Origin: Shigella phage Sf11 SMD-2017
Sequence record: MF158038
DNA length: 46,454 nucleotides
Direction: 5' to 3' (one strand)
Part shown: positions 483 through 8,738 of the stretch, in pieces
How the letters are laid out: each line of letters opens with the position of its first letter
Position numbering within the stretch: position 1 is the first letter of the stretch
Program-made: the position numbers and the translations under genes
Notes under the pieces: model-generated
Seen by the model: the letters and a program-made list of their open reading frames with translations, nothing else
What the model was told of the DNA's origin: nothing
Database searches by the model: none

Positions 483-2812
483 TGATTGGTTATGAAGATT
501 ACCGCAAATGTGGCTTCCCTATTATTGGAATCCATGCAATGGATATCGACCGCAATTGCACATGCGGTGATCCAGAATGCAATGCTGCCGGTAAGCATCC
601 GGTTATGAGTAACTGGCAGCTTGGAGTTATATGGGCTGATGACCAGATTGAAAATATGGCTGAATATGGTCAATTGCAGTCATTCGGTGTCCTTGTGAAT
701 GGTTATCTGGTAGTTGATATTGATCCACGCAACGGAGGTAATGATGGATATGAATCACTTTGTGATGCCTTAGACGTAGAGCTTGCTGACGAAGCTGGCT
801 TTACTGTTAAGACTGGTGGTGGTGGTCGCCACATCTATTACAAACTTCCTGAAGGAATAAAGCTGCGCTCTCATGACAGAAGGTTTAAGGGTATTGACTT
901 TAAATCATCTGGTTTTGTTGTTGGCTGCGGCTCATTCCATAAGTCAGGTAACTTTTATGAAGCTGAGCATGGCTCCCCTTCAGAGATAACTGAATGTCCA
1001 TCTGAACTTATTGAGCTTTTGTCGCGCCCTGAGAGAACGGAAGACGAAGTTTTCACGCTTGATAGTAAAAATTACAGCATTGCCGAAATGGAGGATATGC
1101 TCAAATACATCAAAGATGGTGATGAGTATGACCCATGGCTTCATGTAGGTATGGCTATCCACGAAGCTACAGAAGGCAATGGTTTTGAGCTTTGGGATAG
1201 ATGGTCATCGCAGTTCAGCAAATACAGAGCTGAAGAGATGGACGCAAAATGGCATTCCTTTGGAAAGGACGGTGTTAGCGAAAAGATAACAGAAGCAACG
1301 CTGGTTTATCTCGCGCAAGAGGGAGGGTGGGTAAGGCAAGTAACTTTTGAGGCTACGCCAGAGGAAATTGAGAAACTTGAGTCTTTCGAACGAGAGATGG
1401 CAATGGGTGTTGGTGAATGCCCTGTAGAGTACAAAAGTGTTGATGTCCGTTATCCCCCTGGATTTGTTGGTCGCCTTACGGCGTGGATTAATAAGAACTG
1501 TGCAGAGAAGCGAGAGAACATTGCAGCACTTGCCGCATTGCATGCCGCATCCATGATTTGCGGAGCGTCATCTGATATTTATCTTACAAACAGGAAAGCC
1601 TTACCAAACCTGTTTGCTGTTGGCATAGCTGGTTCAGGTTCAGGTAAGGGTGATGTCCTTGCTGCGCTACAAAAGATAATTGATTGCTCAGGATTGAGTA
1701 AGACAGTTGCCGGTAAGATACGTTCAGAGCGTGCGATATATGAAGGTCTTTGCGCTAACCAGATGTTTAATATCATCATGGATGAGATTGGGATAAAACT
1801 TGGTAGTGTTGTTGGTCAGAAAGTAAGCGAGTACAACATGGCAACCGCTGGTGCAATCATGGAGGCTTACACGTCAGAAGTTCTTTATTGTGACCAGCGG
1901 GTTACTGAGGATTTCATTAAGTCTTTCGAAAAGAGAAAGGCTATGCTGTTGATGGCTATTGAGGAAAATGAGATACAGGCAGACCCAGTTGACATTAAGT
2001 GTCAGTTTGATGATGTGATAAACAGAATTGATGGAGCTATAAGGAATCCATTTTTTTCAATCTTTGGTGTGTCTACTGATGATCAGTTTAAGCGACTTAT
2101 CACTGAAGAAAACATTAAGTCAGGTCTTATGGGTCGCGCAATGATTATGCAGGAGTTGCAGGAGATTGCTGACGAAAACGAAAACGTTAACTACTGTGAT
2201 CTACCTATGGATATGCAACTGACCATAAAAACAATAATAAATGGCGGAACGGCTGGGCACAAAAACTGGACAGACTCAATAATCAGTCAAAAAGAAAGAC
2301 GGATTATAAAAGCTACGCCTGAAGTTTCTCAGCTCGCTAAGGAGTTCTTCTCATGGATTAAAACCGTTGCAAGAAAGCATGTAGAAAATGGTACTGGTTA
2401 TCACCCATTGATAAACAGATGCGCCGTGAAGGTGGCAAAGATTGCTGGCATTCTCGCGTGCGATACTGGCGTCATAACCATGGAGCACTTGAGGTATGCG
2501 GTAGCATTAACAATTAAATCAACAAGCGATCTGATGATGCGTGCTGACAGTATCGCCGGAGCGAAGTCTAAAGCTATGGAAGAAAGAATTGAAGGTATTT
2601 TCTCCATGGTTAAAGAATATGTGAAGCGTGGAATGACCAAAACAGCAATGGTTAGAGGGGTAGCAAAAGAAGGTGGGTATAAACGTGCTGATGTCGAGAG
2701 GTGCGTAGAGAAGTTGTTATCAGATGGTATTATTTGCATTGATGAAAATGCAAAAAGAACATCTCACAACGTAATAATTTACAAATTAACAAATGATGAG
2801 GTTGAGATATGA
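479..2812 (+). CDS. DNA primase-polymerase (AEP prim-pol N-terminal domain, PriCT-like middle, P-loop NTPase/helicase-like C-terminal domain)
   Basis: 777-aa ORF; prim-pol-like motifs (LVVDIDPRNGG, GGGRHIYY, GIDFKSSGFVV), W..W..KW.SF primase C-terminal motif, Walker A GIAGSGSGKGD. Confidence 0.8.
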   Translation: MMIGYEDYRKCGFPIIGIHAMDIDRNCTCGDPECNAAGKHPVMSNWQLGVIWADDQIENMAEYGQLQSFGVLVNGYLVVDIDPRNGGNDGYESLCDALDVELADEAGFTVKTGGGGRHIYYKLPEGIKLRSHDRRFKGIDFKSSGFVVGCGSFHKSGNFYEAEHGSPSEITECPSELIELLSRPERTEDEVFTLDSKNYSIAEMEDMLKYIKDGDEYDPWLHVGMAIHEATEGNGFELWDRWSSQFSKYRAEEMDAKWHSFGKDGVSEKITEATLVYLAQEGGWVRQVTFEATPEEIEKLESFEREMAMGVGECPVEYKSVDVRYPPGFVGRLTAWINKNCAEKRENIAALAALHAASMICGASSDIYLTNRKALPNLFAVGIAGSGSGKGDVLAALQKIIDCSGLSKTVAGKIRSERAIYEGLCANQMFNIIMDEIGIKLGSVVGQKVSEYNMATAGAIMEAYTSEVLYCDQRVTEDFIKSFEKRKAMLLMAIEENEIQADPVDIKCQFDDVINRIDGAIRNPFFSIFGVSTDDQFKRLITEENIKSGLMGRAMIMQELQEIADENENVNYCDLPMDMQLTIKTIINGGTAGHKNWTDSIISQKERRIIKATPEVSQLAKEFFSWIKTVARKHVENGTGYHPLINRCAVKVAKIAGILACDTGVITMEHLRYAVALTIKSTSDLMMRADSIAGAKSKAMEERIEGIFSMVKEYVKRGMTKTAMVRGVAKEGGYKRADVERCVEKLLSDGIICIDENAKRTSHNVIIYKLTNDEVEI

Positions 2813-3231
2813 TTAATTACAAGTATCTGGTGATGAGAGGTTTGTATGACTATTTTGAGTCAGAAAATCCTGAGCGCGCACACGATAACGCAATATCCAT
2901 GATGACAGGAAAGCACCTGATGGAAGTTTACTACTGGAAAATGCCTGTATTCCGCTGCAATATGGGTATCTGCATTGATGATGACGTACTGTTTTGTCGA
3001 ATACAATATGAAAACAATGTTGGCATAGTGACAGCGTCGTACAGGGATGTTGCAAGGAAATCCGGAAACTGGCATCCAAGCGAAGTATTTGCTGGTGACG
3101 CACTATTTAATTTCTGCAAGGCGTTTGGTGTTTTGTATGAGGATGTAAGCAAAGAGTATAGCGGAAGGCGTGAGAAAGATAGCTTGAGTTCCAAGGGTGT
3201 GATTAACTACAAGGATAAAAACCATGTGTAA
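2809..3231 (+). CDS. Hypothetical protein
   Basis: ORF track; start overlaps primase stop (ATGA), consistent with operon coupling. Confidence 0.5.
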   Translation: MINYKYLVMRGLYDYFESENPERAHDNAISMMTGKHLMEVYYWKMPVFRCNMGICIDDDVLFCRIQYENNVGIVTASYRDVARKSGNWHPSEVFAGDALFNFCKAFGVLYEDVSKEYSGRREKDSLSSKGVINYKDKNHV

Positions 3232-3427
3232 CACAATGAGAACAATATCAGGCGAACTTTGTCGCTCAGAAGGTTCATGGCATTTCATGCCGAATGGTTA
3301 TTCGCCATGGTTTTTCTGGAGCGGGATTAACAAAGCATGGATTCTATCTAATTACCACGTGATTGATGATTACTGGCACAGATTTTGTGTTGGTTATGTT
3401 GATATTTCAAAATTGATGATTAAGTGA
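3224..3427 (+). CDS. Hypothetical protein
   Basis: ORF track; tight packing within the early operon. Confidence 0.4.
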   Translation: MCNTMRTISGELCRSEGSWHFMPNGYSPWFFWSGINKAWILSNYHVIDDYWHRFCVGYVDISKLMIK

Positions 3428-3437
3428 GGATAAGAAA

Positions 3438-3695
3438 ATGAATGTGAAAGATAAAGTTTTATACGTGATGAGAAAGAGAAAATCCATTGAGGAGGAGACA
3501 CTTGGGATTTGTCGCAAGTTCTCCGTGGCTACGTGGAATCTCCGTCTATCGATGGTGAATGAATTTCCTGATGATGAATGGACAACAGCAAAGTTACGGA
3601 AGGTTCTGATTTCTCTTTGTAAGGATGGCATTGTATCAAAGGATTTAAATAACAGTCGCATTGGTAATTCAGTTTGGATTCTGGAGGAAAACTGA
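3438..3695 (+). CDS. Hypothetical protein
   Basis: ORF track; RBS-like aggataagaaaATG. Confidence 0.45.
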   Translation: MNVKDKVLYVMRKRKSIEEETLGICRKFSVATWNLRLSMVNEFPDDEWTTAKLRKVLISLCKDGIVSKDLNNSRIGNSVWILEEN

Positions 3696-3978: not shown

Positions 3979-4001
3979 AAAAGCCCGCAAACGCGGGCTT
4001 T
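3979..4001. terminator. Bidirectional intrinsic terminator (agcccgcaaacgcgggct + T-run)
   Basis: GC hairpin flanked by A-run and T-run between convergent genes. Confidence 0.7.
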
Positions 4002-4002
4002 A

Positions 4003-4287
4003 TTATTTAACAATCCATTTTGTAACAGCTGGCCTTAAATCTTCCTTTCTGAAGAGTCCACCAGTAAGTTTTTCGGCATCAATTGCTGCTGTAGCGCTAA
4101 TTCTTCCCCTTGACACCCACTGATTGACAGCCTGTTTTGACACACCAAGAAACCTTGCTAGTTGTGATTGCCCTCCAACATAATCAATCAGCTCTGATAG
4201 CTTCGTCTGTTCCATTTCTCTTATCTGTTCTGCGATGCTTTTCATGTGTTTACCTCTGCTATCTGTATGCAGCAATAATGAACTCAA
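4003..4287 (-). CDS. HTH (Cro/CI-type) DNA-binding regulator; probable start at 4245
   Basis: Small protein with helix-turn-helix-like segment (QSQLARFLGVSKQAVNQWVSRGR); only minus-strand gene in the early block; own promoter 4275-4303. Confidence 0.7.
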   Translation of the reverse strand: MSSLLLHTDSRGKHMKSIAEQIREMEQTKLSELIDYVGGQSQLARFLGVSKQAVNQWVSRGRISATAAIDAEKLTGGLFRKEDLRPAVTKWIVK

Positions 4288-5670: not shown

Positions 5671-6209
5671 ATCGAGAGGACACAAAAATGGGTTTCTGGA
5701 ATCTTTCTGACGGTAAAGCTGTTGAATCTAAATCTGAATTTGAACTGGGTGGTGGTTTCGAAGTAATTCCTGATGGTAGCCGCGTTCTTGCTGCCGTTGA
5801 AGAATGTAAAGACGACCAGTGGGAAGGTGAGCGATTCTTCAATCTTAAGTGGCGAATCCTTGAGGGTGAGTATAAAAATCGCATCATCTTTCAGAAGCTG
5901 AAGGTATTTAGTTCAAAAGAGAAACAGCGTGATAATGCTATCACTATGCTTGCAGCAATTGACGCAAACGCTGGTGGTAAGCTGATGGCATCAGGGAAAG
6001 AGCCGACTGATTTTGCTATTGCCAGCGCGCTTGCAAATCGCCCGATGATTCTTCTTCTGCGCGTTTGGGAGTCTGAGGATAAGCAAAAAACTGGCAACTA
6101 TGTGGCTGGTGTTTTCAGTCGTCAACAGACAAAAGCAGCGCCTGCTCCTAAGCAATCAGCGCCATCTAACGAGCCGCCGATGGACTTCGACGACGACATT
6201 CCGTTTTAA
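5628..6209 (+). CDS. SSB-like protein carrying a host-type SSB C-terminal acidic tip (PPMDFDDDIPF); likely start ATG 5688
   Basis: C-terminus ...SAPSNEPPMDFDDDIPF matches the conserved E. coli SSB tip; RBS tcgagaggacac upstream of ATG 5688. Confidence 0.7.
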   Translation: MRHHRRQTETDHQINREDTKMGFWNLSDGKAVESKSEFELGGGFEVIPDGSRVLAAVEECKDDQWEGERFFNLKWRILEGEYKNRIIFQKLKVFSSKEKQRDNAITMLAAIDANAGGKLMASGKEPTDFAIASALANRPMILLLRVWESEDKQKTGNYVAGVFSRQQTKAAPAPKQSAPSNEPPMDFDDDIPF

Positions 6210-6220
6210 TTTAGATTGTA

Positions 6221-8131
6221 ATGACAGGGCCATTCGTGGCCCTTTTTATTCGAGAGGACACTATGAAAGTACAGCTTAGAACATACCAACAAGAAGCTGT
6301 TGATTCTGTTATAGGTCATATTCGTTCAAGCGTTTCATCGTGCATGATCATCTTGCCTACAGGGTCTGGAAAAAGCGTTGTTGTTGCATCAATCGCCGAT
6401 TGGGTATTTAAAAATACTGGAAAGCGCGTTCTGTGTGTTGCACCAACAAGCGAGTTAGTTGTTCAAAACAGGCAGCGGTATCTTTCTCTAACAGGAGAGC
6501 CAGCCAGCATGTTCAGTGCAAAGGCTGGACCAAAAAACCTGCGTCATCCGGTGGTGTTTGGTTCACCAGTTACAATCAAGAACTCAATAGAGATGTTTGG
6601 TGATAAGTATGGCGCTGTCATTATTGATGAATGTGATGGAATAACACCAACCATTAAATTTATTATTAATGAAATGAAGCGTCGCAATCCAAAACTGCGT
6701 GTTATTGGAATGACCGCTACTCCTTATCGCCTTGGAACTGGATACATCTACAAAGAGCACTATTTAGACGGTCCCACAGATGAAGAAACGGCAATTGACC
6801 CATATTACGACAAAGTCGTTTATGAGCTTGAGGCTAAATTCCTCATTGAACACGGATACCTTACGCCGCCAGTTACAGAGCCTGTTTTTGATGAATATGA
6901 TACGTCTTGTCTTGAAAAGGATAAGTTGGGTCGTTACACGACAGCTTCAGTTGAAAAGGCAATGGTTGGAAAAGGAAGGAAAACATCACGTATTGTTGAA
7001 GATATTATCCGTCGCTCTGTTAATCGGCGCGGAACGATGATTTTTGCCAGCACCAAGAAACACGCTATGGAGATAATGGAGTCACTTCCTCCCGGTTCTT
7101 ATAGTTATGTTTTTGGTGATATGCCGACAGCGGAACGCAATAAGGCAATATCAGACTTCAAGACGCAAAAAGTTAAATACATCGTCAACCAGAATATCCT
7201 TACTGTAGGGGTTGATGTTCCTCATTGTGATCACATAGCAGTAATGAGAGCCACAGAATCACCAAGGCTCTACCAGCAAATAATTGGCAGGGGGACGCGT
7301 CTTTATGAAGGAAAGGAAGATTTTCTTGTCAGCGATTACGCAGGCAACATCCAGCGCCACTTTTCCGAGACTGGGGACTTGTTTACTCCAGAAATAAAAG
7401 CAACAAGGAAAAAACCATCAGTGCCAATGGATGTAAAATGCCCGTTATGTGGTTTTATCAATGAATTTGGCGTGCGCCCAAATCCGGAAAATCTGGAAGT
7501 TGACAAAGAAGGTTACTGGCTTGATTTGGCTGGTGACAGAGTGATGATTGATATTTTTGATAAGTCAGGTGAAAAAATTGGAAGCAAGCCTATGCCTGCT
7601 CATTTTGGCAGAAGATGTAAAAACTACGTTATGCAAGGTCCACTAAGGGAAATGCACAGATGTACTTATAAATGGTCGGTAAAAGAGTGTCCTGATTGTG
7701 GGTTTGAAAATGATATAGCAGCAAGAAATTGCACATCATGCGGAGCTGAAATCATTGACCCCAATCAAAAGCTAAAGGAAGAAGCTGACAGGCTTGATTC
7801 TTCTCCTTATGCAACCAAGCAATCAAGCGTAACTATGATGAACATTATGAAGCATTACGTTTCAAGTGGCGAGGATTTGGTGCACGTAAAATTTGCTATT
7901 GAACAGAAGCCATTTTTTGTTAGCAAGTTCTACAATCCAAACTCTGAGAAGGAATGGATGAAGAAGGAGTGGGAAGAGTTTTGCGGTAAGTGCTTTGGTG
8001 AATCCGATATGTCAATTGATGATGCAATAGCAAAAAGAGATGAAGCTGTCGCACCATCGGTGATCATGTTCAGAAGAGATAAAGGAAGTAAATATTTCAA
8101 CGTTAAAGGCATGTATTGGGGGGTATTATGA
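6221..8131 (+). CDS. SF2 (DEAD/DEAH-type) helicase with C-terminal zinc ribbons; likely start ATG 6263
   Basis: Motifs LPTGSGKS (Walker A), IIDECD (DExD), TATP, QQIIGRGTR; three CxxC...CxxC pairs in the C-terminal region. Confidence 0.8.
   Translation: MTGPFVALFIREDTMKVQLRTYQQEAVDSVIGHIRSSVSSCMIILPTGSGKSVVVASIADWVFKNTGKRVLCVAPTSELVVQNRQRYLSLTGEPASMFSAKAGPKNLRHPVVFGSPVTIKNSIEMFGDKYGAVIIDECDGITPTIKFIINEMKRRNPKLRVIGMTATPYRLGTGYIYKEHYLDGPTDEETAIDPYYDKVVYELEAKFLIEHGYLTPPVTEPVFDEYDTSCLEKDKLGRYTTASVEKAMVGKGRKTSRIVEDIIRRSVNRRGTMIFASTKKHAMEIMESLPPGSYSYVFGDMPTAERNKAISDFKTQKVKYIVNQNILTVGVDVPHCDHIAVMRATESPRLYQQIIGRGTRLYEGKEDFLVSDYAGNIQRHFSETGDLFTPEIKATRKKPSVPMDVKCPLCGFINEFGVRPNPENLEVDKEGYWLDLAGDRVMIDIFDKSGEKIGSKPMPAHFGRRCKNYVMQGPLREMHRCTYKWSVKECPDCGFENDIAARNCTSCGAEIIDPNQKLKEEADRLDSSPYATKQSSVTMMNIMKHYVSSGEDLVHVKFAIEQKPFFVSKFYNPNSEKEWMKKEWEEFCGKCFGESDMSIDDAIAKRDEAVAPSVIMFRRDKGSKYFNVKGMYWGVL
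6226..6250 (+). terminator. Intrinsic terminator (gggccattcgtggccc + T-run)
   Basis: GC hairpin followed by tttttatt. Confidence 0.6.
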
Positions 8132-8583
8132 TTTTTCCAGAAGGCATTAAGGTATATGGAAATTTAGATTACAGGAACAAAAAGTGTCCGTCAGAAGATG
8201 CTGAACTGGAGACTTTTGTCAATCAGATAAGGAAGCTATATCCTGACTTTGCAAGAGTTATGATTCATGTGCCAAATGAAGGAAAGCGTAAAGGGTATGA
8301 AGTTGAAAACCTGAAGAAAAAAGGCTCGCTAAACTTCGGGGCGTCAGACATCATTATCATCGGAAAGCAATCATTCGTTATGGAGATGAAGAGAATGGAT
8401 CATACTTTATCAAAATGGCAGCCCGGTCAAATGGCATACCTTAAGGCAGCAAAAGAATTAGGTTCCTTCGCGTGTGTATGCCTTGGTTGGGAAGCTGCAA
8501 TAATGGCATTTAACGACTGGAGAGCAATGAATTACCCAAACTATAAAAAAACATCAGATCCATTGATATTTGATGGTTTTTAA
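8116..8583 (+). CDS. VRR-NUC domain nuclease
   Basis: Motifs HVPNEGKRKG, GASDIIIIGK and EMK consistent with the VRR-NUC / PD-(D/E)xK fold. Confidence 0.7.
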   Translation: MGGIMIFPEGIKVYGNLDYRNKKCPSEDAELETFVNQIRKLYPDFARVMIHVPNEGKRKGYEVENLKKKGSLNFGASDIIIIGKQSFVMEMKRMDHTLSKWQPGQMAYLKAAKELGSFACVCLGWEAAIMAFNDWRAMNYPNYKKTSDPLIFDGF

Positions 8584-8700
8584 CAGCCACGCCAGCAATC
8601 AGGCCAACAACCGCAACGACAACAACAGCCGCCAAAACAACAAGTCCCACAAGGAGGCAATGAGCCCCCAATGGACTTCGACGACGACATTCCGTTCTGA
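8584..8700 (+). other. In-frame extension after the VRR-NUC TAA stop that encodes a Q/P-rich linker plus SSB C-terminal tip (…GGNEPPMDFDDDIPF*)
   Basis: Direct translation of 8584..8700 in the VRR-NUC frame; 26 nt (atggacttcgacgacgacattccgtt) identical to the 3' end of the SSB-like gene at 6184-6209. Confidence 0.6.
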
Positions 8701-8707
8701 TGATAAA

Positions 8708-8735
8708 ACTAACCCCGCCGAAGCGGGGTTTATTG
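8708..8735. terminator. Bidirectional terminator between early operon and tailspike gene (aaccccgccgaagcggggtt)
   Basis: GC hairpin with flanking A/T runs between convergent genes. Confidence 0.7.
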
Positions 8736-8738
8736 TTG

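Follow-up and report, generated by a model that had tools for sequence, protein, structure and literature searches.

Layout of the locus

The stretch under study, positions 8584-8700, lies in a Buchananvirus-like siphovirus, Sf11, whose region is 94.7% identical to that of Escherichia phage Sa179lw. It separates the last gene of the early operon from a terminator and a convergent tailspike gene. Throughout the text, the window is the whole 46,454-nt stretch of DNA that was analysed. The features that matter here are the following:

5688..6209, plus strand: DUF669-type SSB, 173 aa (Pfam DUF669; phrog_9002, 'single strand DNA binding protein', over its full length)
8128..8583, plus strand: nuclease of predicted VRR-NUC fold, 151 aa, last gene of the early/replication operon (open reading frame, profile and fold), native stop TAA at 8581-8583
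8584..8700, plus strand: probable remnant of an ssb 3' end, 38 codons plus TGA (homology to full-length ssb 3' ends; PHROG matches to the tail only)
8651..8657, plus strand: AAGGAGG, which is CAA-GGA-GG(N), Q-G-G codons inherited from ssb and kept in ssb tails
8671..8697, plus strand: codons of the SSB tip MDFDDDIPF, containing one copy of a 26-nt repeat (8671-8696)
8711..8730, both strands: bidirectional intrinsic terminator of the early operon and the convergent tailspike, a 20-nt G+C-rich hairpin plus T-run
8739..10496, minus strand: convergent tailspike, 585 aa (Pfam Tail_spike_N), an exchangeable cassette with the remnant on its 3' flank

Positions 8584-8697 form 38 sense codons (QPRQQSGQQPQRQQQPPKQQVPQGGNEPPMDFDDDIPF) in the same frame as the nuclease gene and are closed by TGA at 8698-8700. 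The stop-free frame that an earlier note had described directly past the TAA at 8581-8583 is present, its 39 codons being 38 sense codons plus the stop. The terminator that it had placed past the TGA was likewise found, as the hairpin AACCCCGCCGAAGCGGGGTT at 8711-8730, and so was an AAGGAGG 13 nt upstream of an ATG, at 8651-8657 and 8671, respectively. The encoded extension, QPRQQ...GGNEPPMDFDDDIPF, consists of a Gln/Pro linker and an acidic tip. When aligned with full-length tails, 8584-8697 shows the disordered linker ending in D-D-D-I-P-F, and the tip is identical to the E. coli SSB C-terminus (PDB 1eqq_A, matched to the last residue). The likeness to the C-terminal tail of bacterial SSB, the hub for SSB-interacting proteins, lies in the 38-residue Gln/Pro linker ending in NEPPMDFDDDIPF; the tip is common to the E. 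coli SSB terminus and to phage SSBs of the PF00436 family. In contrast to a bacterial SSB, the Sf11 stretch has no OB-fold, no start codon and no ribosome-binding site, and it follows a stop codon: it is a gene fragment, not a gene. The PHROG matches cover only the C-terminal ends of SSB profiles, the stretch begins right after the nuclease TAA with no ATG, GTG or TTG before codon 30 of its frame, no ribosome-binding site of its own for an ssb gene was found in 8584-8700, and neither was a promoter-like site. No other 78-nt stretch of the early operon is as C>G-skewed as positions 8584-8661, with 37% C and 18% G, a skew at the 98th percentile for the window. The segment is most likely an untranslated 3' UTR. 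An antisense ORF of 82 aa (8510..8758) runs across the terminator, with the variable sites at the first positions of its codons.

The upstream nuclease

The gene at 8128-8583 had been labelled VRR-NUC from its sequence, a label for which Pfam offers no support: no family matched even at E<=10, the VRR-NUC model included. At default thresholds, Pfam, PDB sequence searches and Rfam returned nothing for the nuclease or the region. The PHROG match was to phrog_824, annotated as 'unknown function', and a look-up of the exact Sf11 nuclease protein returned no record. Support came from other sources. A profile of the nuclease matched the VRR-NUC structure 4qbl_A in the PDB with an E-value of 0.011. 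The AlphaFold (AF2) model (pLDDT 85.9) retrieved 4qbl, 4qbo, 4qbn and FAN1 as the top PDB folds in Foldseek, with probability 1.00 and TM-scores of 0.62/0.76 to 4qbl. Residues D74, E86 and K88 are invariant across 31 nuclease homologues. Because of the profile match, the modelled fold and these invariant residues, and despite the lack of a Pfam match, the gene is predicted to encode a VRR-NUC-fold PD-(D/E)xK nuclease.

The SSB of the phage and the 26-nt repeat

The DUF669-type SSB ends in a tail of its own, ...SNEPPMDFDDDIPF, which holds the other copy of the repeat. Two exact copies of the 26-mer ATGGACTTCGACGACGACATTCCGTT are present, one at 6180-6205 and the other at 8671-8696, where shuffling gives an expectation of 0. 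The identity with the SSB-like gene reported earlier therefore exists, at 6180-6205 and not at 6184-6209. All relatives, ECO95 1-6-1 with no remnant among them, conserve the DUF669 tail, SNEPPMDFD[DS]D[IV]PF, and within single genomes this tail varies independently of the remnant (in L010, for example, DFDSDVPF in the former and DFDDSIPF in the latter). Gene conversion between the two tail copies was considered and rejected on these two grounds. The DUF669 SSB is neither the source of the remnant nor its conversion partner, and the 26-nt match is coincidental, a matter of codon choice for the same nine residues. As judged from its annotation and tail, the DUF669 protein would be the working SSB of the phage; it is already tailed and would not need the remnant tail.

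Homology to full-length ssb genes at the same position

The wider search retrieved 263 phage records matching any part of the query. From 8582 to 8735, nucleotide identity is 86-91% to annotated full-length ssb genes, over their 3' ends and the terminator, in Akira (Akiravirus), HC6 (HC6-like phages), DS8 (Deseoctovirus), ViII-E1 (Macdonaldcampvirus) and KFS-SE2 (Skatevirus); ssb 3' ends from many others are likewise ~90% identical. The Akira ssb protein is a PF00436 SSB, and full-length relatives carry PF00436 at residues 5-106. In the sister genera, the early operon ends with genes for a helicase, a small nuclease-like protein, an exonuclease, an ERF-type recombinase and ssb, followed by the same terminator and a convergent tailspike. 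In the Sf11 group, the order is AAA_24, Gp157, DUF669 SSB, helicase and VRR-NUC, then the ssb tail only and the same terminator. The nuclease stop codon is where every alignment to ssb-bearing loci begins, so that homology has an abrupt edge at the joint. The homology to ssb 3' ends, the intact ssb in the equivalent position and the edge at the stop codon together identify 8584-8700 as an ssb remnant at a module joint. Among the possibilities raised earlier, that of a relic of a deleted ssb gene was essentially right: intact PF00436 ssb genes at this place are homologous to the segment over their final ~39 codons and the terminator. The suggested comparison with related phages returned the intact ssb at this position and no VRR-NUC::SSB-tail fusion.

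The terminator and the tailspike cassette

The hairpin at 8711-8730 scores on both strands. The same hairpin adjoins tailspike genes in Akira, HC6, DS8, KFS-SE2, ECO95, phiG17 and PBM-3, which represent several unrelated genera and include both sipho- and podoviruses. The Sf11 tailspike has a receptor-binding part ~81% identical to that of the P22-like Sf101 tailspike and an N-terminal anchor ~78-83% identical to those of Akira-, Skate- and Bas77-80-type phages. Close relatives of Sf11 carry three different terminators and different tailspikes at this position, and one identical nuclease protein (P0010) adjoins three different terminator/tailspike cassettes. The terminator zone is likely the crossover zone.

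A conserved 20-nt terminator motif in non-coding DNA downstream of coliphage receptor-binding protein (RBP) genes was previously proposed as a recombination hotspot in Gamaleya-, Kutter-, Justusliebig-, Kayfuna- and Nouzillyviruses, genera that do not include Buchananvirus (Virol J 2023, PMC10408124). Its likeness to the Sf11 element lies in a conserved terminator immediately 3' of tailspike genes, across genera and morphotypes; the motif, whose sequence is given in that paper as an image only, may be the same as the 8711-8730 hairpin. The words 'ssb', 'single-strand' and 'remnant' do not occur in the main text of that paper, and the titles and abstracts of papers mentioning Sa179lw do not describe the feature.

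Conservation of the stop codon between the nuclease and the tail

Eleven Buchananvirus-like genomes were compared: Sf11, Sa179lw, ECO111 5-P, YX3973, five IMG/VR genomes, one metagenome contig and one Logan contig. All 11 keep a stop at the nuclease end, TAA in two (Sf11 and Sa179lw) and TAG in nine, and in all of them the next base is C. The remnant frame is open in 10; the exception, L012, is interrupted in frame by a TAG at codon 8 of the remnant. Scanning metagenomes for the junction added only one further locus. In a collection of 5.8 billion proteins, all 49 clusters of nuclease homologues are 119-152 aa long, with neither a nuclease-tail fusion nor a sense-codon variant among them; the 15 listed members of the 341-member cluster (90% identity) are 151 aa long, except for one fragment of 109 aa. 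All nuclease lineages terminate at the same ...F-stop position.

An assembly or sequencing error concealing a nuclease-tail fusion or an intact ssb, for which nothing speaks beyond the in-frame arrangement, can hardly be entertained: the same junction recurs in 11 independently sequenced genomes and contigs with two different stop codons, at the native ...F-stop position common to all nuclease lineages. The suspicion that such an error hides a fusion is refuted by these stops and by homologue clusters that never exceed 152 aa.

Apparent selection and probable import from functional genes

The remnant has the look of a coding sequence under constraint. Across nine genomes, pN/pS is 0.13 in the tail frame and >2 in the other two frames. 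Among close genomes, indel lengths are divisible by three, and the tip reads MDFDD[DS]IPF throughout, except for MEFDDSIPF in L102. However, several observations indicate that this synonymous bias was generated elsewhere, namely discordant divergence, variants shared with functional genes and exchange of the adjoining block. Between L011 and L012, the nuclease genes are 98.5% identical (pS 0.033) and the remnants only 80.7% (22 differences in 114 nt), and a remnant more diverged than the adjoining nuclease gene is a pattern repeated over many genome pairs. For each independent remnant lineage (YX3973 and L014 counted as one), the nearest sequence is the full-length ssb tail of another genus and not another remnant. 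Thirty-seven of the 47 remnant variants also segregate in functional ssb tails, including a five-base DDSIPF block, a +3 insertion and a CCA->CAA change, and the distribution of remnant variants is incongruent with the similarities among nuclease genes. Finally, when L016, which carries a remnant, is compared with L045, which carries ssb, the terminator and about 600 nt of tailspike 3' sequence are 94-99% identical, the last ~300 nt compared are 85-91% identical, and the identity inside the remnant is 79-92%. This profile places a crossover near the ssb stop and terminator. The most parsimonious reading of these comparisons is that remnants have been patched repeatedly from functional ssb genes during tailspike exchange.

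Some observations pull the other way. The frame is intact in 10 of the 11 genomes, and the tip, MDF/EFDD[DS]IPF, carries no remnant-private change, though the latter is not significant: about 2.4 such changes would be expected, and the probability of seeing none is about 0.07. Had the nuclease genes been homogenised recently, and not the remnants, the low pN/pS would point to selection acting in place; this is made less likely by the multi-base variants shared with functional tails and by the L016/L045 block.

A McDonald-Kreitman-like test was also tried. Shared variants numbered 27 synonymous to 10 non-synonymous and remnant-private variants 1 to 9 (Fisher p 0.0005). The relaxed constraint first read from the private variants, which include a nonsense codon, was withdrawn, as singletons in functional tails show a similar ratio of 5 to 20 (p 0.65).

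Remnants in other lineages and a reciprocal scar

Other nuclease lineages carry remnants of their own. In the P0010/P0007 lineage (64-66% amino acid identity), the nuclease gene ends in TGA, directly followed by ATG and ~20 codons of a different ssb-tail type; this remnant, MKPSNT[SP]KPP[AE]N[ED]PPMDFDDDIPF, matches the ssb type of L047-L059, with homology starting 4-5 nt past the TGA. The remnant of the P0004/P0011 lineage is 15 codons long, lies in the +1 frame and ends in a tip shortened to MEDDIPF (QQ[TP]PNS[PQ]PMEDDIPF). In P0008, a P0010-type remnant is found whose tip has been replaced by unrelated sequence. No remnant was detected in P0002, P0015, P0016 and ECO95 1-6-1, where only the terminator follows, 4-17 nt past the stop. 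Taken together, the nuclease lineages display every stage expected of a neutral scar.

The fragment is also found outside siphoviruses. In three N4-like Gamaleyaviruses, 17-22 codons of this tail and the same terminators occur between genes, immediately 3' of tailspike genes and on the strand opposite to every neighbouring gene. The tip is intact in PBM-3 and SP5M but reads MGFSDDIPL, a decayed form, in phiG17, and the sequence downstream of the PBM-3 fragment is that of HC6. The reciprocal scar exists as well: ViII-E1 and a related UViG, L036, carry a 3' fragment of an ECO95-type nuclease between an intact ssb and the tailspike, frameshifted and running ..GWEEAMMAFNDWRSKNYPKQNEP into two stops. 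Therefore, a piece of the donor's last early-operon gene, whichever that gene is, is carried along with the tailspike cassette.

Novel joints of mosaic phage genomes are said to arise by illegitimate recombination followed by selection (the model of Hendrix and Juhala). The Sf11 remnant resembles the remnants at such mosaic joints in its abrupt edge at a gene boundary, with modules unrelated on one side and related on the other, in its decay variants and in its reciprocal scar. The features of such a joint seen here are homology to the 3' end of a gene that is intact at the corresponding place in related genomes, independent and reciprocal scars, and variants in decay. It differs from a typical pseudogene fragment in that the Sf11-type remnant has been repeatedly refreshed from functional copies and is, for this reason, better preserved, with an open frame and a synonymous bias.

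One aspect is not predicted by a scar. Remnants adjoin the nuclease stop within 0-5 nt in three independent lineages, and in P0010/P0007 an ATG directly follows the TGA; both speak against it. A native spacer of only 4-17 nt between stop and terminator is part of the explanation for the abutment. It is also possible that joints keeping the ssb start signal, and so expressing a tail-only fragment, were selected against. We considered whether the ATG of P0010 is a retained ssb start and found this unsupported, since homology to the donor-type ssb begins 4-5 nt after the TGA. No relative with a full ssb directly after this nuclease was found among the genomes compared.

Alternative readings

Translation of the tail as part of the nuclease would require programmed stop readthrough or another form of recoding, yielding a minor VRR-NUC::SSB-tail fusion tethered to proteins that bind the SSB tip. 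Known cases of programmed recoding are the UGA readthrough that produces Q-beta A1 and the +1 frameshift at CUU-UGA in prfB. The Sf11 locus shares with these the layout only, a stop followed by an open extension in frame (or +1). Such an extension lies right past the stop in 10 of the 11 close genomes, with the invariant C after it; the P0010 lineage has TGA and then an in-frame tail; and the +1 remnant of P0004/P0011 stands behind TTT TGA A/C, which we take to be a formal resemblance to the prfB shift site. Unlike Q-beta A1 and prfB, Sf11 has no leaky stop, no stimulatory element and no mechanism shared across lineages, and sister lineages dispense with the extension. Its stop is TAA, the least leaky stop in E. 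coli. No suppressor tRNA was found, as only tRNA-Ser(gct) and tRNA-Arg(tct) are encoded in the window; the downstream RNA structure is not significant apart from the terminator (fold z -1.5); and no Rfam match above threshold occurs in the region. Each lineage would need a mechanism of its own, be it readthrough of TAA or TAG, readthrough of or re-initiation at TGA-ATG, or a +1 shift at TTT-TGA. Coding conservation beyond what ancestry and imports supply was not seen: L012 has a second in-frame stop, the frame is +1 in P0004/P0011, the tip is lost in the P0008 lineage and four lineages have no remnant. The 49 homologue clusters hold neither a sense-codon variant nor a fused homologue, and the listed members of the 341-member cluster do not exceed 151 aa. 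The readthrough or recoding proposed in the earlier note is left without positive support, and we regard it as very improbable. A separately translated micro-peptide acting as a decoy for the host SSB interactome, either the 9-aa MDFDDDIPF starting at ATG 8671 or, in the P0010 lineage, a 24-aa M-KPSNTSKPP..DDDIPF, fares no better and has just as slight a chance of being right. The AAGGAGG 13 nt upstream of the ATG, the 'TGA ATG' adjacency in P0010/P0007, which would allow translational coupling, and a tip intact in 11 of 11 close genomes speak for it. Yet AAGGAGG is the Q-G-G codons, equally conserved in full-length ssb genes, and CAAGGAGG is found in nearly all aligned full-length ssb tails; seen in this alignment, the motif need not indicate a ribosome-binding site. 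Shine-Dalgarno (SD) spacing usually has its optimum at 5-9 nt, which 13 nt exceeds. The internal ATG has no SD sequence before it in the P0010 and P0004 lineages, and the ATG after the TGA persists in the P0008 lineage despite the loss of the tip. Equally intact tips occur in antisense intergenic DNA of podoviruses, where one of them has decayed, and tip variation in the remnants mirrors that in functional tails. The 9-aa tip mimic has no positive support. That these phages make small amounts of a tail-only peptide, or of a tail-tagged Holliday-junction-type nuclease, is improbable overall; if they did, the product would bind to the host partners of the SSB tip, among them RecQ, ExoI, PriA and the chi subunit, or compete for these partners.

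A role as nucleic acid has somewhat better prospects, though we still consider it unlikely. The remnant would be kept as a cross-genus homology arm, or 'boundary sequence', for tailspike exchange, or as an untranslated C-rich, G-poor stretch that would load Rho before the terminator, in a zone of convergent transcription. Crossovers map to the zone of the tip and terminator, the fragment travels with tailspike genes into unrelated phages, 8584-8661 has a strong C>G skew, and a recombination hotspot has been proposed at the terminator motif that follows RBP genes (PMC10408124). Against this, selection that acts through recombination yet to come would be a second-order effect and difficult to sustain, the terminator alone suffices for four nuclease lineages, and the composition follows automatically from Gln/Pro codons.

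Probable origin and meaning of the remnant

The reading that we favour, and hold to be very probably correct, is that 8584-8700 is an untranslated ssb remnant at the left boundary of a mobile tailspike cassette, kept 'alive'-looking by imports. An illegitimate joint or a deletion would have created the junction between the nuclease and the ssb tail once, in the ancestor of the group. Since then, the remnant may have been partly overwritten, repeatedly, by homologous recombination with ssb-bearing phages during exchange of the tailspike cassette, with crossovers presumably falling in the zone of the ssb tip and terminator. As these imports came from functional ssb genes, the open frame and the synonymous-looking variation would be borrowed and not a product of translation at 8584-8700. 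As a protein, the remnant probably does nothing. Its only plausible role would be passive, that of providing an extra ~150 bp of cross-genus homology, together with the terminator, to the left of the tailspike cassette.

The locus is probably a new example of an already known phenomenon, a mosaic-joint scar left by ordinary recombination, and not a new recoded protein. For annotation, this means that no fusion, recoding site or micro-gene is to be called at 8584-8700. More broadly, phage mosaicism can fake selection: a dead fragment may keep an open frame and a low dN/dS by being overwritten from live copies. With single-base precision, the remnant locates where a tailspike cassette begins on its left side, a cassette passed among siphovirus genera and on to N4-like podoviruses, and knowing this edge would be useful for understanding and engineering host-range swaps.

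Tail remnants and nuclease-gene ends in related lineages

An ssb 3' end lying directly behind a nuclease stop codon, as at 8584-8700 (+) in the window, was also found in other lineages of homologous nucleases. In the P0010/P0007 lineage (L108-L114), the nuclease TGA is followed at once by the ATG of a 24-codon ORF (TGA ATG AAA CCA ...), which encodes MKPSNT[SP]KPP[AE]N[ED]PPMDFDDDIPF. This ORF is what remains of the tail of another ssb type and, given the arrangement of stop and start codons, could in principle be translationally coupled. The remnant starts in the same way in the P0008 lineage (L118-L123; ~1660-1845 of L118), with the SSB tip replaced and the frame running on into an uncalled 61-codon ORF that ends in MAALMLFALPVGVVARYMDRAIGLLYILASLFLLFVALNVCYEIMQ before its stop; the C-terminal part is strongly hydrophobic and two-helix-like, and the product is possibly a small membrane protein. 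At the nuclease stop region of the P0004/P0011 lineage (L107, L116), TTT TGA A/C is followed in the +1 frame by a 15-codon remnant, QQ[TP]PNS[PQ]PMEDDIPF; this context bears a formal resemblance to the prfB CUU UGA C shift site.

The reciprocal of the window scar is present in Salmonella phage ViII-E1 (AM491472; ~3330-3465) and in L036 (~1900-2020). Both carry a decayed, frameshifted 3' piece of an ECO95-type VRR-NUC gene, which ends in GWEEAMMAFNDWRSKNYPKQNEP followed by two stops. The pieces lie in a 'non-coding' gap, with an intact ssb and its own terminator on one side and the tailspike gene on the other. In ECO95 1-6-1 itself (~3540-3600), the nuclease has an in-frame stop (NYPKQN-stop-PSSPITISHF-stop); because this stop falls 11 codons short of the ancestral C-terminus, either the conserved I-x-x-F end is dispensable or the ECO95 copy is impaired.

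VRR-NUC proteins, including that of the window (8560-8583), end in FDGF, IDSF, IKEF or IESF, and the genes directly upstream of ssb in ssb-bearing uncultivated virus genomes (L024/L033/L044/L047, ~1170-1200), presumably ERF-type recombinases, end in IEGF or IENF. The ending common to both groups, [I/F]-[D/E/K]-x-F-stop, recalls an acidic/hydrophobic Phe-COOH docking motif, and the underlying GG(A/T)TTTTAA could have offered microhomology for joints.

ssb-tail sequences beside tailspike and fibre genes

Siphovirus ssb tails of 17-22 codons, together with the terminator, were detected in intergenic DNA of N4-like Gamaleyaviruses, 3' of tailspike or endosialidase genes.

ssb-tail fragments in Gamaleyaviruses
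PBM-3, ~4000-4090, antisense to all neighbours
SP5M, ~4000-4067, antisense to all neighbours
phi G17, ~4001-4102, antisense to all neighbours

The PBM-3 fragment shares its flank with siphovirus HC6, and the phi G17 copy has decayed (tip MGFSDDIPL). Klebsiella phage FBKp34 (MW394390), a 141-kb myovirus, encodes at 2180-3040 a 286-aa 'hypothetical protein' ending in AEPPMDFDDDIPF, with codons identical to the window 26-mer (6180-6205 and 8671-8696). This gene faces, in convergent orientation, one for a tail fibre with an endosialidase-chaperone domain. Two candidate readings are a further non-canonical SSB with such a tail, and a tail captured beside the fibre cassette.

The window tailspike gene, 8739-10496 (-), is a mosaic: its receptor-binding part (~8840-10017) matches the Sf101 tailspike, from a P22-like Shigella phage, at 81.5% identity, and its N-terminal anchor (~10113-10560) has 78-83% identity to Akira-, Skate- and Bas77-80-type siphoviruses.

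Composition, early operon and replication modules

On the + strand of the early operon, no other 78-nt stretch is as C-rich and G-poor as 8584-8661 (37% C, 18% G; within the whole window, 98th percentile), a segment that is unstructured and probably untranslated. Rho-loading sites typically have such a composition, though here it follows automatically from the Gln/Pro codons. Neither of the two tRNA genes at 20558-20727 is a suppressor.

tRNA genes of the window
20558-20727, tRNA-Ser(gct) and tRNA-Arg(tct), adjacent

Within the early operon, immediately 3' of the DUF669 SSB gene, a hairpin followed by T5 (6210-6262; GGGCCATTCGTGGCCC) looks like a terminator or attenuator. At this position, the close relative Sa179lw has an additional 216-nt gene that the window lacks.

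Right behind the helicase in ssb-bearing genera, Akira (3238-3678) and DS8 (353-793) encode unannotated 146-aa 'hypothetical proteins' that are distant homologues of the window VRR-NUC (31-37% aa). A helicase-nuclease core is therefore common to both replication modules, and the difference between them is the exo-ERF-ssb block.
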